DNA of 64,000 bases from Bacteroidaceae bacterium (lineage in GTDB: Bacteria; Pseudomonadota; Alphaproteobacteria; RF32; CAG-239), in NCBI GenBank assembly GCA_963641885.1, contig CAVIDY010000002.1, positions 18,811 to 82,810 on the forward strand, read 5' to 3'. Every line of letters begins with the position of its first letter. Positions within the stretch are counted from its first letter, which is position 1. A program made the translations under genes and the position numbers. This document shows positions 329 to 22,661 of this stretch, in pieces. Under the pieces are notes generated by a model, which was not told the DNA's origin, ran no database searches, and was given only the letters and a program-made list of their open reading frames with translations.

Positions 329-1468
329 ATGTTGAGTGCTGGTATATTTATATTTGTGTTATTGGTTATTGCTGGTTTAGCTGCTATGCTGCTTGTTTTT
401 ACGCCAATTGCCAATAAATATATGCAAACGCTGACTGTGACTCCGTCAATGCTGCCGTTCAGCTATATTTTAGGATTTTATGCCGTTGGGGCAACTTTAA
501 TTTATTATTTCTTACCGCTTAATGATTTTATAGAGCCATTGACAGCAAGCCGTTTTTTTATCCCCATGCTTTTAGCAGCTGTAATATTTATTTCTTCCAT
601 GTTTTTTGACAATTTAATTTTTATACCGATTGTGATATGCTGTGTGGCAATTACGGTTTTTCTGCAGCCTTTGGGCGACGGATTTCCTTATGCATTTTTT
701 CCGCTGTGGGTGTCACGCCTTTTGCTTATTATATTTTTTTCAGTTTTTTGCATTTTTTACGGTGTGTTGAATTTTTTACCGCACACCATGGTAATTTCAA
801 CAATCCTAACCTTATTAGGAATTTCTTTACTGCCATTTTTTTCTGCCGCTCCGTTTTACTTTTTATTCTGCTCGGCTTTGCTGATTGGCGCGCTTGCTGG
901 TTATTTATGCGTCAACTTAAACACGGTAAAAGTTCCTTTTGACAACGGCTCTTGCTGTGCCTTGGCTTATTTGTTAAGCAACTTGATGCTGCAAGACAGC
1001 GGAGAATACAGCTTTAGCTCCTGCGTTATTTTTACTGCATTTTTTTGGAGCGAGTTTGCTTTTGCGCTTTGGAATAAATTTGTGATTGTCAAAGCCGGAG
1101 CATTATATGAAAACACAAACTGCGCATTAGCCGCCCAAAAATATAATTTACGCTTTTTATCGGTCAGCGTTGCCAAAATTTGCGGAGTAAGTCTGTTAAT
1201 CGGCTGTTTCCAGCTTTTTGCCGTAAACCAATATTCGCTGATAATAATCTGCTTTATCATAACCGGCTGGCTGAGTCATTCTATGCTGCACCCGTTTAAC
1301 TCTAGTTTTAAAGAAATCAATGCCGAATTTGTAGCAGATTTTAAACAAAATATTGCCGATATTCATAATGACTTGAAATCTTTGCAACAGCCGGATTTGC
1401 CGCCAAAAACAAAACAACAGTCAAAAACCAAACATTGCAAATCAGCACGCACCAAGCGCGAGGACTAA
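329..1468 (+). CDS. Hypothetical polytopic inner-membrane protein (379 aa) with a Lys-rich C-terminal tail
   Basis: Long ORF with at least 9 hydrophobic helices and no recognisable family motif. Confidence 0.5.
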   Translation: MLSAGIFIFVLLVIAGLAAMLLVFTPIANKYMQTLTVTPSMLPFSYILGFYAVGATLIYYFLPLNDFIEPLTASRFFIPMLLAAVIFISSMFFDNLIFIPIVICCVAITVFLQPLGDGFPYAFFPLWVSRLLLIIFFSVFCIFYGVLNFLPHTMVISTILTLLGISLLPFFSAAPFYFLFCSALLIGALAGYLCVNLNTVKVPFDNGSCCALAYLLSNLMLQDSGEYSFSSCVIFTAFFWSEFAFALWNKFVIVKAGALYENTNCALAAQKYNLRFLSVSVAKICGVSLLIGCFQLFAVNQYSLIIICFIITGWLSHSMLHPFNSSFKEINAEFVADFKQNIADIHNDLKSLQQPDLPPKTKQQSKTKHCKSARTKRED

Positions 1469-1473
1469 TAAAT

Positions 1474-2811
1474 ATGTCATTTTCACCGAATTTATTAAAT
1501 ATCCGCAGCCTGCTCGGCTCTGAGAAAAAGCCTGACAAAAACAGCTTATTTCGAGTTACTGTCGTTGCGTTTGAAGACAAGTGCAATTTAAACTGCGGTC
1601 TGCGTTTTGCCGAACTTTTGAAAAAAAGCAATTTATTTGACATAACATTTTTTAACGAACCGTTTGCCAAAGGCTTTTTAAATTTACAAAGCCGCAACTT
1701 TTTTGATTTTATCGACCGCGGCAATAAAATTTTGAGTTCGACTCAAGCTGATATTGTGATTTGGGGATATGAAGATGAAGGTAAAATCCGCCTTAATTTT
1801 CAGACAGCTAATCAATATGCCATCCCCGACAGCCTGTCTTTTTCACTTTTAGACAGCTTATTTATTCCTTTAAGCTATTTAACAGACACTGCGAATTTTT
1901 CCGAATCTCTGCTGCTTTTAATATACGGAATAATTGTGGCGGCAATAAATCCGGTTAGCAACGCACAAAAACAAAAGCGTCCGCAGATATTGCAAGAGCT
2001 CATCACGCTTTTATCCGCTGACAGAACCCCAAAAGACATATCCAAGGAATTTATGCCGTATATTATGAACTTATTGGGAAAAATATATTTGTGCAATGCC
2101 CGCAACAGTTTGACCGAAAAAGATATTGAAATTATCCATAACCTGTTTGAGCTGGCGCTGAAAAATAAACAATATATCCGCCTGCCTATTTATTACGGCT
2201 GCATTTACAATAATTTCGGTCAGCTATATGAAACAGCGTTTCGGCAAAGTAGACAAGGCAATCTCTATTATTTGAAACAAGCCATCTCCAACTATCAAGC
2301 GGCGCAGAAAAATTTGAACCGAAACTATCCTTATGATTTTGGGCTAATTGCCTATCATTTGGCTTTGCTTTATTTTGAATATTGGAAGCACACCGCCGAT
2401 TTGCAGGCTTTACGTGATGCCGTATCCAAGCTCCGCGAGGCTGAAAAAGTTTATTCTTTGGCGCAATTTCCGGAATCTTGGTGCCAAATTGAGGGGCTTT
2501 TAGGCAATTATATCACTTCTCTCGGAATGCAGACCAAAAGCAACGAGCTTATGCAGTTAGCAATCGAATCCTACAAAAATCAGCAAAAAATTTATACGCA
2601 GAACAACGCTCCGGCAGTTTGGGCGGAAATTCAAGAAAAAATCGGCAATATTTTTTATTTGCTCGGCAAACAAAATGACGATGACCAACTAATGGAAGAA
2701 GCGCGCAATTATTTTAATTCGGCGCAGGAAATATATTGTGAATTAAATCTGAAACAAGACATAAAAAGCGTGGATCGAGCCTTGCTGAAAGTCAGAAATT
2801 ATTTGGGTTGA
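1474..2811 (+). CDS. Hypothetical protein with a TPR-like helical repeat C-terminal half
   Basis: The ORF-track start at 1435 overlaps the upstream gene. ATG 1474 has an AGGAC Shine-Dalgarno 8 nt upstream and sits just after the upstream stop. The C-terminal region shows repeated helical A/Y/L patterns typical of TPR. Confidence 0.5.
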   Translation: MSFSPNLLNIRSLLGSEKKPDKNSLFRVTVVAFEDKCNLNCGLRFAELLKKSNLFDITFFNEPFAKGFLNLQSRNFFDFIDRGNKILSSTQADIVIWGYEDEGKIRLNFQTANQYAIPDSLSFSLLDSLFIPLSYLTDTANFSESLLLLIYGIIVAAINPVSNAQKQKRPQILQELITLLSADRTPKDISKEFMPYIMNLLGKIYLCNARNSLTEKDIEIIHNLFELALKNKQYIRLPIYYGCIYNNFGQLYETAFRQSRQGNLYYLKQAISNYQAAQKNLNRNYPYDFGLIAYHLALLYFEYWKHTADLQALRDAVSKLREAEKVYSLAQFPESWCQIEGLLGNYITSLGMQTKSNELMQLAIESYKNQQKIYTQNNAPAVWAEIQEKIGNIFYLLGKQNDDDQLMEEARNYFNSAQEIYCELNLKQDIKSVDRALLKVRNYLG

Positions 2812-4503: not shown

Positions 4504-5217
4504 ATGTTATACATTTTAGCGGGCTTTGTGTTTGGCTGTTTGATTCCCTATTTAGCGCGCCGCCTTGGCAAATTGATGCCAGCGACCATGGGTTATATTC
4601 TGCTCAAAATTTTTATTCCGCAGCATTATATGCCGTGGAGCAAACTGAAAAATGACTTTGAATATATGGAATTATTTAAAAGATATATGATGAGAAGCTT
4701 GGGCTGGGGAATTTTCTGCGCCGCCGCCACCTATTTGTTTGCCGTAAATTTTGACCCGTATTACACTGGCTGGTACATTGCCTTTTTATGGATTATGCTG
4801 CTGCTGGTGGAAATCGACAAGCGCTTTATGCTGCTGCCGGATATTTTGACCCTGCCGCTGCTGGTTTTGGGCTTCGGCTATGCGGCAGTCAACGGCGTAT
4901 GGCTGGATACGATTGACCCGCAGCTTATCAGTAATGCGCAAAACAGCTTTATGGGCGCTTGTGTCGGCTATTTGATGCCGGTTGTCGCCAGTATGTTTTT
5001 GGTTTGGAAATATCCGGACGCGTTCGGCGGCGGCGACATTAAGCTTTTGGCGGCTATCGGCGCTTGGGTTGGCTTAGAGCCTGTTTCATACATTTTGCTC
5101 GGATCCTGCATTTTGTTTGCCTTGGGCTGTGCCATAAAAAAACAGAGAGTCGGTCCATTTGGTCCGTCGATTGTCTACGCCACTCTGCTGGTTTGTATTT
5201 TCTTGTTTGGAATTTAG
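4504..5217 (+). CDS. A24-family prepilin (type IV leader) peptidase, lacking the N-terminal Cys-tetrad/methyltransferase region
   Basis: The conserved catalytic-Asp motifs are present: VEIDKRFMLLPD and FGGGDIKLLAAIGAWVG. It is a multi-TM protein. Confidence 0.85.
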   Translation: MLYILAGFVFGCLIPYLARRLGKLMPATMGYILLKIFIPQHYMPWSKLKNDFEYMELFKRYMMRSLGWGIFCAAATYLFAVNFDPYYTGWYIAFLWIMLLLVEIDKRFMLLPDILTLPLLVLGFGYAAVNGVWLDTIDPQLISNAQNSFMGACVGYLMPVVASMFLVWKYPDAFGGGDIKLLAAIGAWVGLEPVSYILLGSCILFALGCAIKKQRVGPFGPSIVYATLLVCIFLFGI

Positions 5218-7316: not shown

Positions 7317-7330
7317 ATTGATTAGTAATT

Positions 7331-7511
7331 GTCATTCTTGGCTTTGAGCGCCAGCTCATTCGCCGAGAATCCAGAACAATACATCAATAACGTTGAGGGC
7401 GTAGGCGTTAAAGAAACAAAGCAAGGAGCATAAACACACCACTGGTCATTCTTGGCTTTGAGCGATAGCTCATTCGCCGAGAATCCAGAACAATACATCA
7501 ATAACGTTGAG
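7331..7511 (-). repeat. Two direct copies (7331-7398 and 7444-7511) of a roughly 68-bp imperfect-palindromic repeat element, in reverse orientation relative to the copies at 7881-8115
   Basis: gtcattcttggctttgagcg[c/a][c/t]agctcattcgccgagaatccagaacaatacatcaataacgttgagggcg is present twice. Confidence 0.85.
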
Positions 7512-7571
7512 GGCGCTAAGCGAATAATAGACATCTTGACTTTTACTGATACAATATGCTAATTTTCTCAT

Positions 7572-7862
7572 ATGAAAACAATGTATGTATATCTTATAGC
7601 AAGTAAACGAAACGGCACCCTATATTCCGGTGTTACAAATAATTTAGTACGTCGTATTTATGAACATAGAAATGAATTGATAGAAGGTTTCTCTAAACGA
7701 TACCATATACATATGCTTGTTTATTATGAAATTTATGAGGATACTTTAACAGCTATTGAACGTGAGAAAAAAGTCAAACACGCAAGCCGTAAGTATAAAA
7801 TATCTTTGATAGAAAACATGAATCCGGAATGGAAAGATTTATATGAAGATATATGCAAATAA
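7572..7862 (+). CDS. Small stand-alone GIY-YIG nuclease-family protein (UPF0213/COG2827-like)
   Basis: YVYLIASKRNGTLYSGVTNNLVRRIYEH...KVKHASRKYKISLIE carries the GIY-(x10)-YIG pattern and the family C-terminal motif. Confidence 0.8.
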   Translation: MKTMYVYLIASKRNGTLYSGVTNNLVRRIYEHRNELIEGFSKRYHIHMLVYYEIYEDTLTAIEREKKVKHASRKYKISLIENMNPEWKDLYEDICK

Positions 7863-7880
7863 TATCAGATTATTTTTATA

Positions 7881-8115
7881 AAGCGGATATACCATACTGG
7901 ATTCTCGGCGAATGAGCTGACGCTCAAAGCCAAGAATGACAAGCACAGGTTCTTATTTTGCATCTTTAACGCCTCCACCTTCAACGTCATGCTTGAGCGT
8001 GAGCTTTAGCGAACTGCCTCGAGCATCCAGAAATAATGAGTCCTTATTTTTTAAGCAGACATACCATACTGGATTCTCGGCGAATGAGCTATCGCTCAAA
8101 GCCAAGAATGACAAG
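7881..8115 (+). repeat. Two forward-orientation copies (7881-7944 and 8054-8115) of the same palindromic element
   Basis: ataccatactggattctcggcgaatgagct[ga/at]cgctcaaagccaagaatgacaag is the reverse complement of the left-side copies, so it acts as terminal inverted repeats around the GIY-YIG gene. Confidence 0.85.
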
Positions 8116-8340
8116 TAATACTATTTTCTGGCTTAATGCTCATTCGCCAAGAATGACAAGTAATACTATTTTCTGGCTTAATGCTCATTCGCCAAGAATG
8201 ACAAGTAATACTATTTTCTGGCTTAATGCTCATTCGCCAAGAATGACAAGTAATACTATTTTCTGGCTTAATGCTCATTCGCCAAGAATGACAAGTAATA
8301 CTATTTTCTGGCTTAATGCTCATTCGCCAAGAATGACAGT
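8116..8340 (+). repeat. Five perfect tandem copies of a 45-bp unit derived from the palindromic element
   Basis: taatactattttctggcttaatgctcattcgccaagaatgacaag occurs five times. Each unit contains the tcattc-gccaa-gaatga mini-hairpin. The array abuts the stop codon of the 1133-aa gene at 8400-8402. Confidence 0.9.
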
Positions 8341-8399
8341 GTTAGGGACGATGGCTGTCGCTCAAAGCCAAGAATGACAGTGTTAGGAGTTAAAGTTGA

Positions 8400-11300
8400 T
8401 TACCATGCTTCGTTATATTTCAACGTTGGGTCATTCAACCTATTTAAATATTTACCATTAGTCGAATCAACCTTTTCATAATCAATTGCACCTGTCATAT
8501 CCTGCATATATTTATAGCCATCTACAAAGTAATCTTTTTCTGCACTATCTTCATAGCCATGAAATAGGTTTGTTCTATCAAAGTAGCAATATACCGTTGC
8601 ATATCCTTCTATTGATCCTCTCAATACCGGAAATACATTCCAATAGTAACTTTCTATTTTATTGTTACTTGGGGTAGTGCCTATAAATGCATCATACTTA
8701 GATTTAGGATACAAAAATCCAATAATTGCTGACCAACCTTGATAAATACCTTTTTCACTCTTTAATTTAGTCGTCAGAGCTTTTAATCTTGTGCTTTGTT
8801 GGAACATCAACGGCGCAGATGGTTGATAAGAAGCATTAGATTGTAGAACATAAGTACTTGTTTTTACGTTACTGATATCAGCAGTGCCTTTTTCAGCACC
8901 TACAGTTACAGGTATTGTAGTAGCAGTAGTACTATCTTTATCAACCACCATACCGACTTTACTAAATGACGGTCTATCCGCTGGAGTTGCTACTGCAGTT
9001 ACTTGTTCTTTGCTTGGAGTGTCTGGTAATATAAAATATCTATCATATGTTTTGTCACTAGCTTGAGTACCTGCCCCATGTACTGAGCCTGCTTGCGCCA
9101 TTTCCCAGCTTGCCGGAGTCAAGGTTATCACACGACCATATCCAGGAGGACATTGCGGCGCTGGCACAACCCCCATAAACGGCGATGCCCAACTGTCTTC
9201 TTTGCTCATATCCAATGTCTCATCAGGATCTATATCTTGATTCTTTTTTTGGGCTTCTGAATACAACTCATCATCTGCACTAAAATCCCAATTTCCTACT
9301 TTTGTTTCAGAAATGGTATTGTTAACCACGTAAATACCTTTATTGATAAAGTCAGGTAAAATATCACTCAGACGGGCTCCGCCGCGAGTGGTTAATTTGA
9401 TATCGTGCATAACTGAAGTATACGCCGGATTTACCATATAGGTATCATAAGCAACGTCATGGTTAGATCCATTATAATTACTAAAGTCCTTTGTAGCAAG
9501 TATAGGAAATTCAGCGCCGTATGTTTTATTCGTAACAGCATTACCATTGCTACCATAAGCCAAATTGTTTGCGACAAAGCGGGAGGCGGCAACTACACCT
9601 TTACCCTCTAACGCGCCGGTTGTTGTAGCAGGTTTACTATTTTCTCCGCGGACTTCCATATATCCCTTACGGATATATACAGTACCAGGTTCAGTATCAC
9701 TATAATTATTGGTGGTGCTAGTAGCGCCTTGGTCGATATAAACAAGGTTGGAATAATCACCCGCTGTGCTATTCGGCACGATGTTTACACCGGCTCTTAC
9801 ATTATATTGACCGATAGAAACATGATATTTTCCATTCTCTACACTTTCTGTTCCGCGTCCAACTTGACCGGATTTGGAGTCACCAATAAGAACGTTGCCA
9901 TGCATAGCAATATCATACGGCTGCAGATATCCTGCTTGGTTACTGCCTGCAGAGGTGAACATATCTTGAAAAGCATAGGAGTTTGGATTAGAATTTGCGC
10001 GAACACTAAACACATACCGTCTATCGGCAGTTGCATCATGATAATATAATCCGCCTACACCGATATTAAAGTTAGCGTCAGCCAAATCTACCGAACCTTG
10101 ATTAAACAAAGTTCTTGTCTCGTTTTCTGCTCCCTCAATGGTTAATGTTTTATTTTCCATTATAGATCTAATACCGCCACCGTACAGCACCGAAACAGCT
10201 GGTGCGGCAGAATCCGCTGTTTTATTACCGTGAAGCAAAAATAAGCCCGCAGCTTCATCATTTGCATCAGCTCCACCGGTTGCCAACATAATTTGATTCT
10301 CTCGAAATTCAGCTCCAGTTATGTTGTCATCGCCAGTATTTTGAATTGTGACGCCATCTTCATTGGCGGTCAGCCATTTTTCGCTGTCGTCGATATTTTT
10401 TGAGCCAACTGAAAGCGTTGCCGCACGTATTTTTTGCGTATCCAACTGACGAGTTGCCAACAAACCATCTATTTTAGTGTTTGCACCAACTCTAACCTGG
10501 AATAGCGGACTATTGTTATACGTTATTTCATCTAAATTTGCCCCAGGATATGTAGCACTTTTTATTCCATTTTCTAAGATGACAACTCTATCCTTTATGT
10601 TTGCCTCATTATTTTCAAAAGTATAATATGGCTTCAACTGCATAACATTTCCCATAAAATTCATATCTTCTTTTGTTGCTTTTATGGCATAAGTTCCATC
10701 TGCTCGTCCATCAATATACCCGATTTTCACATCATTCCAGACGTCCACATTTGAAGCTAAATTCACATCTCCCAAGTTTGTCAGCGAGCCGTCGGCTGTG
10801 GCGTTGCCGTTGGTGTCAACCTTAAAGTGGAAGTCTTCAGTTGTTGTGTCGCCCTCTGTAATCAGATTACGTCCAAAGCCCAAACGATTTGCATCGGCTT
10901 TAAATTGTTCTCCCGCCGCAATCAAATTGCCTTGAATAAAGGCGTCCGGTTTGCCGAAACCGTCAGCGATATAAAGTCCATAAGTAGAGTTCTCAATATT
11001 GTCGTTCTCTGCACCAACAATCAAGCTTTTAATATTGCGGATACTAAATGTTTTTTGATGATTTTCATTATTATACACATCGTAGGTATTATCAACACCG
11101 CCCATGTATAAATCCGTGCGCATACTGTTTTTCCACAATGTGTTAGGATCGTTACCGGCATCGCGTCCGCGCTGCAGGTATTTATCCATATCAATTTCGT
11201 TGCCAGTCGCGGCACTGATGGTGTCCGCCGACGCCGTCACAATGGAATATTGAGCCGCATCATCTCCATCGGGAAACACTTCGCTATATTCATCGCCTTC

Positions 11301-11801
11301 AAGTTTCCAAATACCGCCGATACCGCGGGCTTTTTTCTCGCCAGTCACATAACCGCCGCTAGAACCAATCAGCGAGGCAATGCGCGAAGTACGCTCTTGT
11401 CCAATATCGGTGTTGGTTTTAAACAGCGCAAACGTGGTCAGGTTATTTCCCTGTTTGGCAATAGCGATTTCAGGCTTGCCGTAATTATACAGCGCCTTGT
11501 CAATTTTAAAGCCATACGGCAGATACGAATCAATTAACGGTAGATCCAATTTACGGATTTTCTGTGTTTCACCCATATCTGCAATAATGGTGGAGTAGTT
11601 TGCGCCCACATAGTCGTTTGCCGCGTTCATAATAGTGCGAATGGTGGACGCAGTGTTGATGTCTTCTACCTCCATGGTTCTTTCCGCCGACTTTTTATAC
11701 ATGGTCGGGGTAACAACGGCGATAAGTCCCAGCATAGCCAGGGCTTCAATCATCAAACCACCCCTCTGCGCTATAGATTTTGAGATATTACGACGTTTCA
11801 T
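8400..11801 (-). CDS. Giant (1133 aa) secreted protein with a type IV prepilin-like (class III) N-terminal signal; candidate pilus-associated adhesin
   Basis: Strong AAGGAG Shine-Dalgarno 8 nt upstream. The N-terminus MKRRNISKSIAQRG|GLMIEALAMLGLIAVV has a basic leader, a G before the cleavage site, Glu at +5 and a 20-aa hydrophobic segment. The remainder is Gly/Asn/Thr/Asp-rich and adhesin-like. Confidence 0.6.
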   Translation of the reverse strand: MKRRNISKSIAQRGGLMIEALAMLGLIAVVTPTMYKKSAERTMEVEDINTASTIRTIMNAANDYVGANYSTIIADMGETQKIRKLDLPLIDSYLPYGFKIDKALYNYGKPEIAIAKQGNNLTTFALFKTNTDIGQERTSRIASLIGSSGGYVTGEKKARGIGGIWKLEGDEYSEVFPDGDDAAQYSIVTASADTISAATGNEIDMDKYLQRGRDAGNDPNTLWKNSMRTDLYMGGVDNTYDVYNNENHQKTFSIRNIKSLIVGAENDNIENSTYGLYIADGFGKPDAFIQGNLIAAGEQFKADANRLGFGRNLITEGDTTTEDFHFKVDTNGNATADGSLTNLGDVNLASNVDVWNDVKIGYIDGRADGTYAIKATKEDMNFMGNVMQLKPYYTFENNEANIKDRVVILENGIKSATYPGANLDEITYNNSPLFQVRVGANTKIDGLLATRQLDTQKIRAATLSVGSKNIDDSEKWLTANEDGVTIQNTGDDNITGAEFRENQIMLATGGADANDEAAGLFLLHGNKTADSAAPAVSVLYGGGIRSIMENKTLTIEGAENETRTLFNQGSVDLADANFNIGVGGLYYHDATADRRYVFSVRANSNPNSYAFQDMFTSAGSNQAGYLQPYDIAMHGNVLIGDSKSGQVGRGTESVENGKYHVSIGQYNVRAGVNIVPNSTAGDYSNLVYIDQGATSTTNNYSDTEPGTVYIRKGYMEVRGENSKPATTTGALEGKGVVAASRFVANNLAYGSNGNAVTNKTYGAEFPILATKDFSNYNGSNHDVAYDTYMVNPAYTSVMHDIKLTTRGGARLSDILPDFINKGIYVVNNTISETKVGNWDFSADDELYSEAQKKNQDIDPDETLDMSKEDSWASPFMGVVPAPQCPPGYGRVITLTPASWEMAQAGSVHGAGTQASDKTYDRYFILPDTPSKEQVTAVATPADRPSFSKVGMVVDKDSTTATTIPVTVGAEKGTADISNVKTSTYVLQSNASYQPSAPLMFQQSTRLKALTTKLKSEKGIYQGWSAIIGFLYPKSKYDAFIGTTPSNNKIESYYWNVFPVLRGSIEGYATVYCYFDRTNLFHGYEDSAEKDYFVDGYKYMQDMTGAIDYEKVDSTNGKYLNRLNDPTLKYNEAW

Positions 11802-11830
11802 CTTCGTTCTCCTTATTCTCCACTATTATC

Positions 11831-12646
11831 CTACTGCTGAACATGGCAGTGTCCGCCGCTATCGGCGTTTCGGTATTTGTCAAATGCAAACAAGCAAGGC
11901 TTGCCCTGCATACACTTTTCTTGAAATGCTTTAGAGGCGTCATCTGATCCAATATAAAAAACCTTCGGAAACACAAAGTTTATATACTTAGCAATTGAAC
12001 CTTTCGCATTTTGCGAATTCTTTTCATACATAATTTGAATTGCCGTACGCCCCACCAAATGGCATTTAGCGGTTGAGCCGGTGCCTTCGCACCACGTCCA
12101 GCCCATATTTTTAACTCCGGAAAGCTCTTTTGCCAAATAGTTGGTAAAATTCGGGGTCGGCGCAACCATTTTTACTTTGCGTGAAGATTCGCCTTCGGTG
12201 ATAGTAACTTCGGTCTCGGTTTTGGAATACCAGCGTTCCGGTATTTTGGCAAAAGAAATGGCATATTTGTTTTTGCTGCCTTCATCGCTGCTGCAACGCT
12301 TTACGTTTGCTCCGTTTTGTATGTTGTCGTCAAAGCAATAAATGGCGTGCGTGGATTCCGTAACGATGTTGTTCATATCATAACCCAAAGGCAGGTTGTC
12401 TTCCATTTTGCTCAGGCAGTTATTTTCTTCTGTGCATTTAAACGGAATGTCATAATTTCCACTTTGCCCGTTATAAATCATTTCGCACTCGGTGCCGCGA
12501 TAAAACGCAAGGTGTTCCGCCCGAAAACGGTTTACTACCGTGGCGGCTTTTATCTCAGTGAATACGCCGGCTTTGTCCTCGCGCGGAGAGGTGTTGAGAA
12601 AACTCAGCGCCACCATTATCGTTGCAAGTAAAATCCAAATATACAT
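11831..12646 (-). CDS. Hypothetical secreted or membrane-anchored Cys-containing protein (271 aa), first gene of the operon with the giant pilin-like protein
   Basis: N-terminal hydrophobic signal MYIWILLATIMVALSFL and AGG Shine-Dalgarno. There is a 30-bp gap to the downstream gene. A promoter-like TTGTGA...TATAAC lies upstream. Confidence 0.55.
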   Translation of the reverse strand: MYIWILLATIMVALSFLNTSPREDKAGVFTEIKAATVVNRFRAEHLAFYRGTECEMIYNGQSGNYDIPFKCTEENNCLSKMEDNLPLGYDMNNIVTESTHAIYCFDDNIQNGANVKRCSSDEGSKNKYAISFAKIPERWYSKTETEVTITEGESSRKVKMVAPTPNFTNYLAKELSGVKNMGWTWCEGTGSTAKCHLVGRTAIQIMYEKNSQNAKGSIAKYINFVFPKVFYIGSDDASKAFQEKCMQGKPCLFAFDKYRNADSGGHCHVQQ

Positions 12647-13777: not shown

Positions 13778-14596
13778 TTATTCTGCACTTTCATGCATCG
13801 GTACATCTGGAGTTTCCACTTCGGCAGATGTTTCTGGCTGAGCTACTGCTTCAGATTTTACCGGCTTTTGAGTTTCAATATCAGCATTAGAATCTGCATC
13901 TGCTGTAACATCAGATGTTTTGTTAGAAATAGTATTCGCTGCACTTGTATTCTGAACAGTAGCATCTTGCTGATCGCTATCTTTATCCAACGCAACAGAA
14001 ATAGCACTAAGCACAATGCTTATGATAAAATATAAAATAATATAAATATTGGCCTGTTTATTATATTTTGGACTTTCTTCAACCGGTTTTCCATATCTGT
14101 TTTCTTCCGCTTGGCCTTTACGCAAATATAAAATTAACAGCCATATCATAACACCAAAAACCACAACACCGGAAGCCCCCATCAAGCCAATACCGATATA
14201 TTTCATATGCGGTGTCAGCATAGTTCCAAATATTATACCTACTCCAAATATTAAAGGCAGCCATAAAAGCTGACCGCTATGGTTTGTATCATGCAATCGG
14301 CGTACGGACAAAGCCAATACAGCAATGGTTTCAAGCAGTGAATACACATAGTATAAAACCGTACCGACAATCATCATTGTTTTTATAGGAAGTAACAGTG
14401 ACATAGCTAATAGCGATATAACCATTCCCCAACCAAATATAACAAGGCTAAATAGAAAATTGGCAAAAACAAATCCCCAATAATCATATTTGCTGGCGCG
14501 GGTTTTGAAGTTAAACATATTTTTGAAACCTGCCACAAATGCGGTCAGCAGATTTTTTTCATTTTCAGTTTTTTCAACTGTTTCTGTCATTGTCAT
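13778..14596 (-). CDS. DUF805-family inner-membrane protein (YhaH-like) with an acidic Ser/Thr/Asp-rich C-terminal tail
   Basis: FKTRASKYDYWGF and VRRLHDTNHSG motifs. Start is taken at MTMTETVEK, which has an AGGAA Shine-Dalgarno and overlaps the comEC 3' end by 23 nt. Confidence 0.7.
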   Translation of the reverse strand: MTMTETVEKTENEKNLLTAFVAGFKNMFNFKTRASKYDYWGFVFANFLFSLVIFGWGMVISLLAMSLLLPIKTMMIVGTVLYYVYSLLETIAVLALSVRRLHDTNHSGQLLWLPLIFGVGIIFGTMLTPHMKYIGIGLMGASGVVVFGVMIWLLILYLRKGQAEENRYGKPVEESPKYNKQANIYIILYFIISIVLSAISVALDKDSDQQDATVQNTSAANTISNKTSDVTADADSNADIETQKPVKSEAVAQPETSAEVETPDVPMHESAE

Positions 14597-16625
14597 TCCT
14601 TTCTTGTTTAATGCAACTGCGCCATGGCCGGCAAACGCCCTGCGGCTGCAGCGGCACAACTTTTGTTTTATTTTGCTTAAAGATATACCCTCCGGCGCTA
14701 TTGTCAATATTTTTTCCATTTATTTTGATATCGCCTTGCTTAGAAAATTCAATCGAATCCAGATAAGCGCATTTTTCCGCACTGCATTTTAATTCAATAT
14801 TTTCCAAGTTTGTTTTGCTGCCGGCAAAAATTTCTTTCAACTCCTCTTTTTGCTCTTTATTCAAATCTTTCAGACGCAGATTTTCACGCCAAACCGAAAC
14901 TGTCCAGCTATCTGTTTTCATTGGCAGAAGCAGCATTTCCCCTGCCTTATCGCGCAAAGCTATCCCCTCGCCTTTGGGAGCAAAAACCATATCCGGCTGC
15001 GCACCGAAAAACATTGAGCTTACACCAATCAAAACCGGCAGCACGCCCCATAAACGCCATTTTCTTTGCCATACGCACAGCCACCAGCCGCCGCAGACAA
15101 TAAGTGCGAATCCCCCAAACGGCAGCGAATCCACATACGCCACACTATGCGGCAAACTTGAGACAAACTCCGTTATTTGGTTGAGCCAACTCACACCATA
15201 GCCCAGAGCTTTTAGCGGATACAGAGCCAATCCCAACGGCAGAGCGACTAAACAAAGCAAAATCAGAGGCATCAAAACCAAACCTATTAACGGACCGGCA
15301 AGCAGGTTAGCCAGGCTTGTATAAACCGAAATCCTGTGGAAATGATAAATTGCAAACGGCATTGTCGCCAGACTCGCTACAAAATCGCAAATCACAATTC
15401 CCGCTAAATAGAAAAAAATCTTGCTGAAAATCCCCCGATTTACTGACCATAAAGCAATCTTTTGCGCATATCTTTCATAAAAAGCGATTAAGGCAACCAC
15501 CGCCGCAAACGACATCTGAAAGCTGATAGATATCAAAGCCTGCGGTGAAATTATCAGCAAAATTAAACCCGCAAAACAAACCATTCGCATAGAAATCGCC
15601 TGCCGATTAAAAATAACCCCGAGCAACACCACGGCGGTCATGATAAACGCACGTTCCGCAGGCACCGCCATTCCCGAAACCGACAAATAGAGCGCGCTGA
15701 AAAGAATTGCTCCGAGCGCGGCAAGTTTTTTGACATCATAGCGCAAAGCTACAGCTGGAAACAGCGCCAGCAAAAAACGCAGCACAAAAAACATCAAGCC
15801 GGCAATCGCGCCCATGTGCAAACCGGAAACCGACAGAAAATGCGCCAATCCCGAATCGCGGTAATTATTAACGATTTGCTTCGGAGTGCGGCTCTGCTCG
15901 CCAATCAGCACCGCGTCAACAATTCCGGCCTCGTTCGGCGGCAGAATCGCTGCCACATCATTAGTAATCCGCTGACGGATTTTGTTAAGGCGAATCCGAA
16001 AAAACGAGGTTTGTTTCTGCTCACAATCAATCACAAATATTGAACTATTTGCATAACCGATACCGCTGATTTCCTCGTAAAAATATTTTCTATCCAGCTG
16101 AAAGCCATTCAGTACCGGCACTGGCGACGGCGGAAAAAATGTACCTACCAACTCCACACACTGCCCGACTTCCAGTTCAGTATTTCCGCTGTTCATCATG
16201 GTGACGCGGTATTTACCTTTAAGCGGTTCGTCAAAATTTTCAACATTCTGCAAAAGCAGCCGCTTGCGTCCTTTTTCATTATATGAAACCGCGCTGATTT
16301 GCCCTTTAATATAATCTGTAATTTCCGGCGTAAACATAACTTTGCGGCTTTTTAATAGAGTTTGCAGCTGGATATCCATAAAACCGAATTCGCATATAAG
16401 AATCGCCGTAAAAAGCAGATGCAGCCCCTTATTACGCAATAAATAAAACAACAGCAAAGTCGCTTCAAAAACGCCCAGACTATACCAATAATTCGGCTCA
16501 AACGGCAAAGCAAAGTATACGGCTATTCCCAAACCAAATAAAAACGGCACCCAAGCCAGCCACCTGCTCTGTTCAGCAAAAAAATTTTCGGAGACATAAG
16601 CTCTTATCTTGCGGAAAATTCTCAT
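14574..16625 (-). CDS. comEC: DNA internalisation/competence protein ComEC/Rec2
   Basis: A 683-aa polytopic protein with the ComEC competence domain (DSGLAHFLSVSGLHMG...). Its start overlaps the lpxB stop by ATGA. Confidence 0.85.
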   Translation of the reverse strand: MRIFRKIRAYVSENFFAEQSRWLAWVPFLFGLGIAVYFALPFEPNYWYSLGVFEATLLLFYLLRNKGLHLLFTAILICEFGFMDIQLQTLLKSRKVMFTPEITDYIKGQISAVSYNEKGRKRLLLQNVENFDEPLKGKYRVTMMNSGNTELEVGQCVELVGTFFPPSPVPVLNGFQLDRKYFYEEISGIGYANSSIFVIDCEQKQTSFFRIRLNKIRQRITNDVAAILPPNEAGIVDAVLIGEQSRTPKQIVNNYRDSGLAHFLSVSGLHMGAIAGLMFFVLRFLLALFPAVALRYDVKKLAALGAILFSALYLSVSGMAVPAERAFIMTAVVLLGVIFNRQAISMRMVCFAGLILLIISPQALISISFQMSFAAVVALIAFYERYAQKIALWSVNRGIFSKIFFYLAGIVICDFVASLATMPFAIYHFHRISVYTSLANLLAGPLIGLVLMPLILLCLVALPLGLALYPLKALGYGVSWLNQITEFVSSLPHSVAYVDSLPFGGFALIVCGGWWLCVWQRKWRLWGVLPVLIGVSSMFFGAQPDMVFAPKGEGIALRDKAGEMLLLPMKTDSWTVSVWRENLRLKDLNKEQKEELKEIFAGSKTNLENIELKCSAEKCAYLDSIEFSKQGDIKINGKNIDNSAGGYIFKQNKTKVVPLQPQGVCRPWRSCIKQERNDNDRNS

Positions 16626-19447: not shown

Positions 19448-19597
19448 ATTTTATCAATTAAATTTTATCAACTTCCGATATTTTTCGGAAGTTTTTTTTA
19501 ATTTTCGGTTAAAAAAGTTATTGACAAAAAGCACAAAAAATAGTATATAGTAAGCACAATTTGATTATTTGAATATTTTTATGTTTTACTAAATACG

Positions 19598-19960
19598 ATG
19601 CATATGAATGGTTATAATGTTTTGGACAAGGATTGCGGGGTTGTTTCTTTAATAAAGTTACCAATTGGTTTATCTTTGTTAGAGAGGCCACAATTGTTGG
19701 ATTATACTCATCCGGCAATCCGAAAAATCATCCCTTGCATCAAGCAAGGTGACAAGTTTACCGATTTGCGTACAAACAAGAGTGTCAAAGTAACGAGAGA
19801 CATTTTGGTTTGGCCTGTTTCTGTCGGAACAGTATTCAATTATCCCGACGGTGAAAGTTTCTTGCTTTCAAGAAGATTTGCAGACGGAAAACTGCTGGTG
19901 CTTAATAAAAATAATTTTACGTTTAATCAGCTGTCTATGGTTGGTTATACCGTAAAGTAA
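19598..19960 (+). CDS. Hypothetical protein (120 aa)
   Basis: ORF preceded by a TTGACA-17-TATATA promoter (19521-19549) and followed by a terminator at 19970-19999. No family recognised. Confidence 0.45.
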   Translation: MHMNGYNVLDKDCGVVSLIKLPIGLSLLERPQLLDYTHPAIRKIIPCIKQGDKFTDLRTNKSVKVTRDILVWPVSVGTVFNYPDGESFLLSRRFADGKLLVLNKNNFTFNQLSMVGYTVK

Positions 19961-19996
19961 ACAAATAAAAAAGTCGTTCTTTTTAGAACGGCTTTT

Positions 19997-20761
19997 TTAT
20001 TTTACAGAATTTAGAGCTTTCCACTCAAACCACTTAGCAATTTTCAAAAAGCGAAAATAAGCGTATGTTGTTGCCATCCAAAATCCGCAAGTTCCATACA
20101 AAAAATAACGCTTTTTAAAATAATATACCAAAAACTGACGCGGAAATTCCGTATACAGGCGCAGACGTGTGTAATTGCGCCCTTCTTTGACGGCAGTTTT
20201 AACCAGCTCATCGGTATACATATTCAGTTTAAACCAAGTTTGAGTTAGAGAAACGTAAGAATAATGAAAAACTTTTGCCTCCATCTGTTCCACAACAGCA
20301 CCTTCGCCAACCACAACTCTATCATGCGTTAAATCATCCGGCATATTGCTTTTTTTACGGTTATACAAACGCACCTGATTATAGGTTTTAGCCAGCCAAC
20401 GCGGCTTTTTATCCCCCGGAAGCATATCGCAGATTTTCATCTTATAAGCGTCCGCAGTCGGATTTTTCATTTTTTCTTTAATCTCGGCAATCAGCTCCGG
20501 CGATAAAACTTCATCAGCATCTAAAGATAACACCCAATCGTTATGGCAAAGCTCTTGTCCATAATGCTTTTGCGCGGAAATATTTTTCCATTTATGAAAC
20601 AAAAACTTAGCCCCGTATTTTTCGGCAATTTTCTGGGTTTTATCTGTGCTTCCGCTGTCTATCACAAAAATTTCATCTGCAACTTTTTTCAGAGCCTGCA
20701 AAGTCTTGCCTAAGCGTTTTTCTTCATTTAATGTAACAATATATGCCGAGATTTTAACCAT
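19997..20761 (-). CDS. Family-2 glycosyltransferase (LPS core biosynthesis type, KdtX/WaaE-like)
   Basis: VTLNEEKRLGKTLQAL...VIDSGSTDKT...LSLDADE are the GT2 DxD motifs. Confidence 0.75.
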   Translation of the reverse strand: MVKISAYIVTLNEEKRLGKTLQALKKVADEIFVIDSGSTDKTQKIAEKYGAKFLFHKWKNISAQKHYGQELCHNDWVLSLDADEVLSPELIAEIKEKMKNPTADAYKMKICDMLPGDKKPRWLAKTYNQVRLYNRKKSNMPDDLTHDRVVVGEGAVVEQMEAKVFHYSYVSLTQTWFKLNMYTDELVKTAVKEGRNYTRLRLYTEFPRQFLVYYFKKRYFLYGTCGFWMATTYAYFRFLKIAKWFEWKALNSVK

Positions 20762-20814
20762 TTATTCTTAACCTTTCGCTTTGCAGATTAGGATATTTTT
20801 GCGTTTCTTGCAAT

Positions 20815-20855
20815 AAAAAAAGCCCCCAACCGCAAAAATTGGGGACTTTTTTGCT
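20815..20855. terminator. Bidirectional terminator downstream of fabI; member of a repeated terminator module also found at 44441-44476
   Basis: gcccccaaccgcaaaaattggggac followed by T6, and T-rich on the other strand too. The element at 44441-44476 shares 30+ nt (cccaaccgcaa...ttgRgga.tttttt.gctga). Confidence 0.6.
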
Positions 20856-20868
20856 GATATATGGCAGT

Positions 20869-21693
20869 TTAAAATTCTTTAAGAACATCTGCGCTTTCAG
20901 CAGCGTTATCAATATTTACCATTGCAATGGTGTTATATCCGCAATCAACGTGCAAAACTTCACCGGTTACGGCAGAGCCCAAATCAGACAACAAACTCAA
21001 AGCCATATTGCCAACTTCGGTCTGATGAACATTGCGCTGCAGCGGAGCGTTTAATTCATTCCAACGCAAAATTGTGCGGAAATCGCCAATTCCGGCAGCG
21101 GCCAAAGTTTTAATCGGGCCAGAAGAAATAGCGTTTACACGAACACCTTGTTTTCCCATATCCACAGCGGCATAGCGAACAGAAGCTTCCAAAGCAGCCT
21201 TAGCCACACCCATAATATTATAGTTTGGCAATACGCGTTCTGAACCCAAGTAAGTCAAAGTCACAATTGAACCGCCTTCATTCATAATTGGAGATGCACA
21301 GCGGCAAGCTTCTAAGAATGAGTAGCAAGAAATATGCATTGTCATTGTAAAGTTATCTAATGTGGTGTCGATTGTGCGACCGCGCAGTTGATCTTTATCC
21401 GAAAAAGCAATAGCGTGAACAACAAAGTCTATTTTTCCCCATTTTTCGCCCAATTCTTTAAAGCAAGCTTCAACTGAAGCAGAATCGGAAACATCGCATT
21501 TAATCAAAAGAGGATTGTTCAGCTGTTCTGCCAAAGGTTTAACTCTTTTTTCCAGCATTTCATTTTGATATGAAATTGCAAGCTGCGCACCATGCGCATT
21601 CAAAGCCTGAGCAATACCCCAAGCAATAGATTTGTCATTGGCAAGACCCATAATCAGACCTTTTTTACCGGTCATAAGTTGTTCAATAGCCAT
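20869..21693 (-). CDS. fabI: Enoyl-[acyl-carrier-protein] reductase (NADH), FabI
   Basis: GKKGLIMGLANDKSIAWGIA...; the Y-x6-K catalytic region and an SDR fold of FabI length. Confidence 0.9.
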   Translation of the reverse strand: MAIEQLMTGKKGLIMGLANDKSIAWGIAQALNAHGAQLAISYQNEMLEKRVKPLAEQLNNPLLIKCDVSDSASVEACFKELGEKWGKIDFVVHAIAFSDKDQLRGRTIDTTLDNFTMTMHISCYSFLEACRCASPIMNEGGSIVTLTYLGSERVLPNYNIMGVAKAALEASVRYAAVDMGKQGVRVNAISSGPIKTLAAAGIGDFRTILRWNELNAPLQRNVHQTEVGNMALSLLSDLGSAVTGEVLHVDCGYNTIAMVNIDNAAESADVLKEF

Positions 21694-21809
21694 TTTCTAG
21701 TTCCTTCATAAATTTTGTTCTAGACTACTCCCCTTTTTGGAAGTAAGTTACTGTAGAGATACTTATACAAATTTATCCGTTTTGTAAACATTTTTTTGAA
21801 AGTTGTAAA

Positions 21810-22661
21810 ATGGCGAAGCAATTTGACACTGCAAAATTTGGCAAACTCTGCCGATTATTTTTTAAATATCTGCGCTGGCGCACTAAAGACGCCATGGTTC
21901 TGCGCGTTGCCGCCTCGCTCAGCTACACCACATTGATTGCCGTGGTGCCGCTGATTGCCGTCGCATTGGCGATTTTTGCCGCTTTTCCGGTGTTTGAAGA
22001 CGTGCGGGCGCAGGTGCAAGACTCGCTTATTCAATATTTTGTACCCAACATCGAACAAAACATTCAAAATTATATAATGCAATTTGTTTCCGCCTCCAGC
22101 AAACTCACCACCATCGGCGTTTTAGGTATTGCCATCACGGCGATTTTGCTGCTGTTTACCATTGAAAACAGTTTTAATTTTATTTTTAAGGTCAAAAAAC
22201 ACCGCCGCTTAGCCACCAAAATCACACTCTATTGGACAATCATCACGCTTTGCCCGCTTTTGGTCGGCACGGCTCTTTCGCTTAAAGGCTATTTGCTGAC
22301 GCTTAAATATTTTCACCCCGAGCACTTTTTAGGCTATAACTTTTTTGTAACTTTTATTGTGCCAAACTCTATAACTTTTGTTTTTTTATGGCTTTCGTAT
22401 GTGATTGTTCCAAATAAAAAAATACGTCTTTCCAGCGCATTTGCCGGCGCTTGCGTAACTTTGATTTTAACCCTGCTATTACGCTTTGGCTTTGGCTATT
22501 TTTTGGTGCTGAACGTTACCTACCGCACGCTTTACGGCGCGCTTGCCACCGTTCCTATTTTGCTGGTTTGGATGTATTCATGGTGGACAATTGTTTTGTT
22601 CGGTGCTGTGGTTACCGCCACCATTGAAGAGTTCCGCAACCGTAAAAAACTATGGAAATAG
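21810..22661 (+). CDS. YihY/BrkB-family inner-membrane protein
   Basis: LAASLSYTTLIAVVPLIAVALAIFAAFP is the typical family N-terminus, with 6 TM helices. Confidence 0.8.
   Translation: MAKQFDTAKFGKLCRLFFKYLRWRTKDAMVLRVAASLSYTTLIAVVPLIAVALAIFAAFPVFEDVRAQVQDSLIQYFVPNIEQNIQNYIMQFVSASSKLTTIGVLGIAITAILLLFTIENSFNFIFKVKKHRRLATKITLYWTIITLCPLLVGTALSLKGYLLTLKYFHPEHFLGYNFFVTFIVPNSITFVFLWLSYVIVPNKKIRLSSAFAGACVTLILTLLLRFGFGYFLVLNVTYRTLYGALATVPILLVWMYSWWTIVLFGAVVTATIEEFRNRKKLWK

Follow-up and report, generated by a model that had tools for sequence, protein, structure and literature searches.

A two-gene module encoding a giant PilV-like prepilin with a hypervariable body and a pilin-fold partner in uncultured gut Alphaproteobacteria

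Results

A PilV-like giant prepilin and its partner gene

We analysed a 64,000-nucleotide stretch of DNA (hereafter the window) and found a two-gene module whose larger product, a 1133-aa protein, combines two parts of different character. By sequence comparison, its first ~295 residues are a type IV pilin homologous to the tip adhesin PilV, and the ~830 residues past this pilin module make up a new body, predicted to be beta-rich, that is mosaic and hypervariable and has a conserved C-terminal region. On balance we favour, with somewhat better than even confidence, the reading that the operon encodes two type IVb-pilus-derived proteins, a variable adhesin of the pilus tip and a PilM-like partner, with the machinery encoded elsewhere. 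The features of the locus are as follows.

8400..11801, minus strand: gene of the 1133-aa PilV-like modular prepilin, with an ATG start and its stop codon at 8400-8402 (ORF list and translation)
11760..11801, minus strand: leader peptide, residues 1-14, MKRRNISKSIAQRG; its last residue is the -1 Gly
11655..11759, minus strand: residues 15-49, the predicted N-terminal part of the mature protein: alpha1 helix GLMIEALAMLGLIAVVTPTMYKKSAERTMEVEDIN, Glu at +5
10917..11753, minus strand: PilV-like (Shufflon_N-like) pilin region, residues 17-295 (hhalign, tblastn, Pfam)
9477..10916, minus strand: variable middle body, residues ~296-775, rich in G/N/T/D and mostly beta by prediction
8403..9476, minus strand: conserved C-terminal region, residues ~776-1133 (YDTYMVNPAYTSVMHDIKLTTRGGARLSDILPDF..., CPPGY, ...RLNDPxLKYxxxW-COOH), its motifs found in 50 diverse representatives
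11802..11830, minus strand: 29-nt intergenic spacer, with an AAGGAG Shine-Dalgarno sequence 7 nt ahead of the ATG
11831..12646, minus strand: gene of the 271-aa partner, a leaderless protein with a pilin fold like that of PilM, with an ATG start
4504..5217, plus strand: candidate processing enzyme, a 237-aa A24 prepilin peptidase (Pfam Peptidase_A24, E 2.7e-16, residues 92-207, above cut-off)

Both minus-strand genes described in the first-pass annotation, 8400-11801 (1133 aa) and 11831-12646 (271 aa), were recovered with their ATG starts, and translation reproduced the N-terminus that it had quoted, MKRRNISKSIAQRG followed by GLMIEALAMLGLIAVVTPTMY. Clustering at 90% gives more than 650 homologues of the 1133-aa protein, and clustering at 50% identity gives 520 representatives; none of these is named. 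They range from 830 to 1470 aa in length, and identity across the diverse family is only 28%.

A class III signal at the N-terminus

The proposed class III (prepilin) signal gained support from the family as a whole. Among relatives, the basic leader drifts in sequence and in length (8-25 aa), while the Gly at -1 (G14) never changes in 27 orthologues or 50 diverse representatives, nor does the Glu at +5 (E19) in the latter. Residues 14-49, which include most of the sole hydrophobic segment (residues 13-35), are near-identical in 27/27 orthologues whose overall identity is just 35-70%. A search for G-x4-E followed by a hydrophobic tract, run on all ORFs of the window and of 26 related loci, returned only orthologues of the 1133-aa protein and one spurious ORF. 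Since the search was this selective and conservation across relatives starts precisely at the predicted -1 Gly, the motif goes beyond chance. The mature protein is predicted to begin GLMIE. GLMIEALAMLGLIAVVTPTMYK would be a semi-specific N-terminal peptide of the pair.

The Pfam N_methyl model (PF07963; IPR012902), by which the type IV prepilin assignment was to be checked, lent it no support, as residues 1-179 gave no match even at E<=10. This model favours pilins of type IVa and T2SS, and type IVb pilins often escape it. In Alphaproteobacteria the usual type IV filament is Tad/Flp, and we also considered its pseudopilins (TadE, TadF and TadG). Like Tad, the 1133-aa system belongs to an alphaproteobacterial host, has the G/xxxxE processing motif and comes with a short A24 peptidase that has no methyltransferase domain. 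Unlike in Tad substrates, residue +6 is Ala in all members, not the typical Tyr or Phe. The Tad reading was rejected: the 1133-aa protein gave no TadE or other Tad match in Pfam, and its detectable homology is to PilV.

Homology of the pilin region to PilV

PilV (Pfam PF04917, Shufflon_N) is a minor pilin of the conjugative type IVb thin pili of R64/IncI type, where it serves as a shufflon-variable tip adhesin. Comparison of the family profile with plasmid PilV by hhalign gave Prob 95.9% and E 5.7e-9 over 264 columns, against 0.7% for shuffled PilV and 0.1% for PilS as controls. In tblastn searches of plasmids, pilV was the sole type of match, in 682 records. The Shufflon_N model scored 22.8-23.1 bits on the N-terminal fragment of the window protein, under its curated GA of 27.5, and matched 6/27 N-terminal fragments (best E 8e-8); one relative exceeded the cut-off at 37.6 bits (P0374). 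The same model gave no match on the full-length window protein or on 27 full-length family members, and Pfam and NCBIfam together gave nothing on full-length proteins.

The full-length AlphaFold2 model (40-sequence alignment) had a pLDDT of 38.5 and is therefore unusable outside residues 45-190, where a long helix and 5-6 strands were modelled at a pLDDT of only 50-74. Residues 17-27 and 35-67 were modelled as helical, with residues 1-45 at low confidence. A Foldseek search with the whole model was meaningless, its matches (sliding clamps, mucins) being noise, and PDB sequences, searched with profiles of the full-length and N-terminal alignments, yielded just spurious designed-repeat matches.

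Like PilV, the 1133-aa protein has a prepilin N-terminus and a constant region, homologous over ~265 residues and including the GGYV...A.G.GG.W motif; in both, the C-terminal part varies between strains, and both systems include a short A24 peptidase. PilV is ~430-475 aa long and encoded on enterobacterial plasmids, whereas the present family is 830-1470 aa long and its gene is chromosomal, alphaproteobacterial and outside any pil operon. Past residue ~300 the two are unrelated. Unlike pilV, the gene has no Rci recombinase, sfx repeats or silent cassettes, and we found no sign of a shufflon in the window: no recombinase lies next to the gene, and the gene is neither repeated nor present in partial copies.

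Large modular pilins, of up to 860 aa, are also an established idea (Raynaud et al. 2021; PMC8179133); PilB and PilC of S. sanguinis belong to them. CofB and TcpB, large minor pilins of type IVb, prime assembly. All of these resemble the 1133-aa protein in having an N-terminal pilin module and a bulky C-terminal part that is thought to be displayed at the pilus tip. They are 400-860 aa long, carry identifiable modules (vWA, lectin, beta-repeat) and lie inside pilus gene clusters, whereas here the genes are orphan and the ~830 residues that follow the pilin module (residues 1-295) match no defined domain. The first-pass description of an undescribed type of adhesin was thus too broad, given the relationship to PilV/Shufflon_N and to modular pilins, and holds for the size, the unrecognisable body and the orphan arrangement, which are new.

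A hypervariable body and a conserved C-terminal region

The middle body is the least conserved and most indel-rich part of the protein. Some of its 50-aa blocks are only 20-30% identical to the closest relatives (L001 and L002), whereas the flanking genes are 93-100% identical. The annotated G/N/T/D richness was correct, each of these residue types making up 7-10%. No match to the middle body was obtained in Pfam, the PDB, PHROG, plasmids or phages, the body of none of the more than 650 homologues matched Pfam, and PHROGs gave no match to the 1133-aa protein as a whole. The AlphaFold2 model of the middle body had a pLDDT under 50. Neither internal repeats in the protein nor silent cassettes or paralogous copies in the window were found that could explain the variability.

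The C-terminal region carries near-invariant motifs, and the Cys pair C884/C1072 and the terminal Trp are invariant in the 50 diverse representatives; the region is probably disulfide-bonded. It had no homologue in plasmids or among PDB sequences. In a single protein, P0409, a Sec signal and BspA LRR repeats are joined to this region. An origin of the body in phage tail fibres or plasmids was also considered. tblastn found nothing for the body in phages and nothing for the C-terminal region or the 271-aa partner in plasmids, and such an origin is therefore unsupported.

The 271-aa partner

The two-gene module was present at every locus examined. The two genes had been described as translationally linked across a 30-bp gap with a strong Shine-Dalgarno sequence. 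The Shine-Dalgarno sequence is there, the gap is 29 nt, and linkage was overstated: the short gap with AAGGAG supports co-transcription and gives no evidence of translational coupling. In 71 related loci the apparent gap was -89 to +47 nt, mostly 6-38 nt, the negative values arising because the first-start ORF calls over-extend the ORF starts. Promoter and terminator scans performed no better than on shuffled sequence.

The label of Cys-containing secreted protein was incomplete for the upstream product. It does contain Cys (8-10 residues), and it is a leaderless protein with a PilM- or pilin-like fold, closest to R64-type PilM (PDB 3eoi and 3hg9; Pfam PF07419), and with an N-terminal membrane helix as invariant as alpha1 of the 1133-aa protein. 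This is a likeness of fold: the partner is about twice as long as PilM and has no detectable sequence similarity to it. No Pfam match was obtained in 65 partner members at E<=1, the hhalign comparison was non-significant (Prob 0.65%), and Foldseek against the PDB gave no significant match and did not recover the PilM likeness.

The A24 peptidase and the search for filament machinery

The annotated A24 prepilin peptidase was confirmed by its Pfam match, and both catalytic Asp motifs (EIDKRFMLLPD and GGGDIK) were recognised by eye; no methyltransferase-domain match was found on it. Its gene lies between rplY/pth on one side and groES/groEL on the other, and is linked to the pair only in L001 and L002.

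As annotated, the window holds no T4P, T2SS or Tad machinery, judging by Pfam on about 50 ORFs and by null phmmer searches with PilN/O/P/Q/R/S. With PilL/M/N/O2/P/Q/R/S/T/U of a reference operon (L029), phmmer gave no match either in the window or across 112 loci. No pilus assembly gene occurred within 10 kb of the pair in these loci, and regular-expression, Walker-A motif and phmmer searches detected no major pilin or machinery in their flanks. This negative result covers 10-kb flanks in more than 100 genomes and contigs. A literature search on pili of this lineage and on PF04917 returned nothing relevant.

Discussion

The 1133-aa protein is probably a variable adhesin displayed on a pilus. 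In the mechanism that we propose, an A24 peptidase (the candidate at 4504-5217) would cleave the protein after Gly14 and so release the leader of 14 residues. The 1133-aa protein and the 271-aa partner would insert in the inner membrane through their N-terminal helices, pair there and make up the complex that primes a type IV filament or sits at its tip; the machinery of this filament would be encoded elsewhere in the genome. The giant body at the pilus tip may then, as a variable adhesin, bind host or bacterial surfaces in the gut.

Other readings were considered. With no machinery or further pilin gene nearby in 112 loci, and an A24 peptidase likewise isolated among housekeeping genes, the giant pilin and its PilM-like partner, processed by this orphan peptidase, might form a self-contained, filament-independent surface-display or envelope-spanning structure; this could be a short pseudopilus or stalk of the two proteins, with no separate major pilin or dedicated cluster. 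An alpha1 conserved as strongly as that of a major self-packing subunit, and the equally invariant helix of the partner, fit this idea. We nevertheless consider it unlikely, as all characterised type IV filaments depend on an ATPase plus a platform protein, with a secretin also required in diderms (PMC4471445, PMC10191384), a subunit of 1100 aa would not easily pack into a helical polymer, and the absence of genes from the flanks is silent on the rest of the genome. A related reading, in which the pair, matured by the orphan A24 peptidase, is a self-sufficient and so far unrecognised descendant of type IV filaments, a surface structure without a separate major pilin or linked assembly cluster, seems to us slightly less plausible again. 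The two-gene module does stand alone in the gut and rumen metagenome contigs and alphaproteobacterial MAGs examined.

Lower still we place a role like that of TcpB or CofB, in which the protein would be a priming or secretion adaptor and not an adhesin, mainly starting assembly and retraction and docking a secreted partner on the conserved C-terminal region as a binding platform. No secreted-effector gene was found conserved beside the pair, and the mosaic hypervariability of the body better suits an exposed, selected surface. Least probable, and in our view very improbable, is an ordinary N-terminally anchored membrane protein, its hydrophobic segment serving as a Sec signal or as a signal anchor that is not cleaved, and its pilin features being vestigial. 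The missing N_methyl and TadE matches, the lack of machinery nearby and the low-confidence model of residues 1-45 would agree with it, but an invariant Gly-1 and Glu+5 beside a drifting leader, in a family at 28% identity, are difficult to account for without recognition by a peptidase and packing of the pilin type. The PilV homology, moreover, runs 280 residues past the helix, and an apparently intact A24 peptidase has been kept.

The variable tip adhesin with a PilM-like partner, which we prefer, would carry the idea of the modular pilin to sizes of 1100-1470 residues and a body without a recognisable domain. It also gives PilV and PilM, familiar from pathogenicity islands and conjugative plasmids, a link to a setting that is chromosomal and vertically inherited. 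If the carrier genomes lack conventional pilus machinery, the pair would point to a new use of pilin-type proteins. The carriers are uncultured Alphaproteobacteria that recur in the human-gut and rumen metagenomes where the family was found, and their attachment is almost unstudied. Since the module occurs at every locus examined and the 1133-aa protein diverges far faster than its surroundings, it is a prime candidate for the main surface adhesin or antigen of these bacteria.

Gene pair and surroundings

We confirmed by ORF listing, translation and Pfam the ORF coordinates, the N-terminus of the large protein and the A24 peptidase gene reported in the first-pass annotation. The features are as follows.

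8400-11801, minus strand: 1133-aa ORF, the large protein (ORF list, translation)
11831-12646, minus strand: 271-aa ORF, the partner, upstream of the large gene (ORF list, translation)
4504-5217, plus strand: Peptidase_A24 protein, 237 aa (Pfam, E 2.7e-16)

The two ORFs of the pair are separated by a short spacer with a Shine-Dalgarno sequence, as had been described; it reads AAGGAG and lies 7 nt 5' of the ATG, and the gap measures 29 nt rather than 30. To call the genes translationally linked on this evidence is an over-reading. The A24 ORF, in which Pfam found no methyltransferase domain, contains two aspartate motifs, EIDKRFMLLPD and GGGDIK, which we take to be the catalytic motifs, and its gene lies between rplY/pth on one side and groES on the other. 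The remaining genes of the window are housekeeping genes and others (groES/EL, lpxB/I/D, bamA, comEC, dprA, topA, recA and a PMP-repeat autotransporter). A second candidate for a large adhesin is the autotransporter (44492-48709, minus strand; 1405 aa), which has a C-terminal beta-domain as well as Chlamydia PMP repeats. Two genes upstream of the peptidase region, encoding a 379-aa polytopic membrane protein (329-1468, plus strand) and a 458-aa soluble protein (1435-2811, plus strand), had no Pfam or PHROG match; both are conserved, in the same order in three loci of relatives (L001, L002 and L027). The DUF805 (13778-14719) and ComEC (14574-16625) ORFs, both listed on the minus strand, overlap by 146 nt, and the DUF805 gene therefore probably starts at a codon 3' of the first ATG of its ORF.

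Immediately 3' of the stop codon of the large gene, a 45-bp unit is repeated perfectly in tandem (8101-8338; 5.3 copies, 100% matches). This array explains a spurious ORF at 8036-8377, whose translation repeats the peptide PRMTSNTIFWLNAHS. A 96-aa GIY-YIG nuclease gene (7572-7862) within 7323-8383 has inverted repeats of 48-58 nt on both sides (7329-7385 and 7442-7499 versus 7886-7943 and 8069-8120). None of the ORFs in this ~1-kb block is shared by L001 or L002, the loci closest to the window and otherwise collinear with it in their flanks; the block looks like a small mobile insertion.

Prepilin signal and PilV homology

The N-terminus of the large protein consists of MKRRNISKSIAQRG followed across the junction by GLMIEALAMLGLIAVVTPTMY, and its single hydrophobic segment spans residues 13-35. 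Among 27 orthologues (35-70% identity), residues 1-13 were variable, with near-complete invariance from G14 through N49. Across 147 cluster representatives the leader varied in sequence and in length (8-25 residues), and the junction followed the consensus G↓[G/S/T][L/M/I][L/M][I/V]E-A. An alignment of 50 representatives (28-51% identity) showed G14 (-1) and E19 (+5) to be invariant and +1 to be variable, which fixes the cleavage register proposed in the first-pass annotation. Invariant residues behind a drifting leader are the pattern expected of a prepilin-peptidase site followed by a packing helix, and the class III prepilin N-terminus proposed there is thus well supported at the sequence level. 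When every ORF in the window and in 26 loci was searched for the prepilin pattern, this protein was the only match. The Pfam N_methyl check that had been suggested gave no match to the N-terminus, nor did the TadE models.

The N-terminal 179- and 300-residue fragments scored 23 bits, below the cut-off of 27.5, against Shufflon_N, the Pfam model of the PilV constant region. The model matched 6 of 27 orthologous N-terminal fragments (best E 8e-8), and the 910-aa relative P0374 exceeded the cut-off at 37.6 bits. Full-length members of the 27-sequence alignment yielded no Pfam match, presumably because HMMER filters act differently on long, compositionally biased sequences. When residues 1-300 were searched against 72,556 plasmids by tblastn, 682 records matched; among the matches listed, all lay under genes annotated 'shufflon system plasmid conjugative transfer pilus tip adhesin PilV'. 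These aligned residues 13-275 at 24-28% identity, with E-values of only 5e-3 to 0.2 in a 7.3-Gb database. Profile comparison by hhalign of the family N-terminus with Salmonella plasmid PilV gave a probability of 95.9% (E 5.7e-9, 264 columns; query 17-303 versus PilV 11-285), and the full-length family profile gave 93.9%, whereas the controls stayed at 0.7% (shuffled PilV) and 0.1% (PilS, the major pilin from that operon). From these searches and controls we concluded that residues ~17-295 probably form a PilV-type pilin module. In the R64 thin pilus, PilV is a minor component (PMC5430464); work cited in PMC4471445 attributes PilV-specific cell aggregation to it.

Body and C-terminus

The body is rich in G/N/T/D. 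Residues ~300-1133 had no match in Pfam, NCBIfam, PHROGs, PDB sequences, plasmids or phages, and no internal repeats were found in them. Conservation was lowest and indels most frequent at residues 300-450, 500-700 and 900-1000, and conservation was high at residues ~776-900 and at the C-terminus, with the motifs YTSVMHDIKLTTRGGARLSDILPDF, CPPGY and RLNDPxLKYxxxW-COOH. The only two cysteines, C884 and C1072, are invariant, as is the terminal Trp; almost all relatives end in RLNDPxLKYxxxW (in the window, the last five codons are 8403-8417). This terminus lacks the alternating arrangement of an outer-membrane beta-signal.

Relative to L001 and L002, identity is 93-100% for the flanking genes and 88-91% for the partner, but only 64-67% for the large protein, in which some 50-residue blocks of 20-30% identity stand beside blocks of 88-98%. 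This mosaic divergence is consistent with allele replacement or with diversifying selection on a putatively exposed surface; neither silent cassettes nor a recombinase are present. A 966-aa relative, P0409 (L114:538-3438), joins a Sec-type signal and BspA-type LRR_5 repeats to the family's conserved C-terminal ~450 residues. This points to a transferable C-terminal module or, alternatively, to a chimeric scaffold; no GC shift was found at the junction.

Distribution and gene neighbourhood

A 5.8-billion-protein collection contains more than 650 relatives of the large protein; all are unnamed, and none has a precomputed Pfam domain. Exhaustive phmmer against 1.84 billion cluster representatives identified 520 related representatives (372 at E<=1e-10; ~830-1470 aa). 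In species-representative genomes, all 26 loci came from gut or rumen MAGs, labelled Alphaproteobacteria or Proteobacteria save for three bins: L002 ([Ruminococcus] gnavus), L009 (Bacteroidaceae) and L010 (Eubacteriales). L002 carries flanking genes 93-100% identical to those of the window. A further 80 loci came from human-gut and rumen metagenomes.

The partner gene directly precedes the large gene in all 84 loci with enough upstream sequence; 71 partners were found by phmmer, and the other 13 are divergent with the same N-terminal pattern. The sole other conserved neighbour is a NUDIX gene (13 of the first 26 loci), and distant members are surrounded by unrelated housekeeping genes. We searched the 10-kb flanks of 112 loci (1.8 Mb in total) by phmmer with 12 queries, namely eleven proteins of a reference R64-type operon and the window's A24 peptidase. 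ATPase, platform, secretin, PilO2, PilP and major pilin were absent from these flanks, and the peptidase was detected in the window's closest relatives only. The locus of one distant relative, L033, has a further 989-aa gene without Pfam match (19532-22501), which is found 6 kb downstream from the pair.

Proposed role

The model with the best support combines a modular minor pilin of the PilV type with a PilM-like partner. Both proteins would be inserted in the membrane via their N-terminal helices, the A24 peptidase would mature the large protein by cleavage, and the two would pair to initiate, or to form the tip of, a type IV filament whose machinery would be unlinked; once incorporated, the variable body may serve as the adhesin. 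Precedents for such a complex are CofB and TcpB, tip-located minor pilins that initiate assembly (PMC6048534, PMC5207764), and modular pilins (PMC8179133). Three observations count against this model: the strictly orphan arrangement of the pair, an alpha1 conservation resembling that of major pilins, and a C-terminus that is conserved rather than variable. On these grounds we give a small but appreciable chance to the pair being used independently of a filament or in some other unconventional way.

The finding on the 1133-aa protein is real. Its description as an undescribed type holds for the new body, the unusual size and the orphan two-gene organisation; as a relative of PilV that conforms to the idea of modular pilins, the protein is no wholly new kind. 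This variant is uncharacterised, exceptionally large for its type and very widespread.
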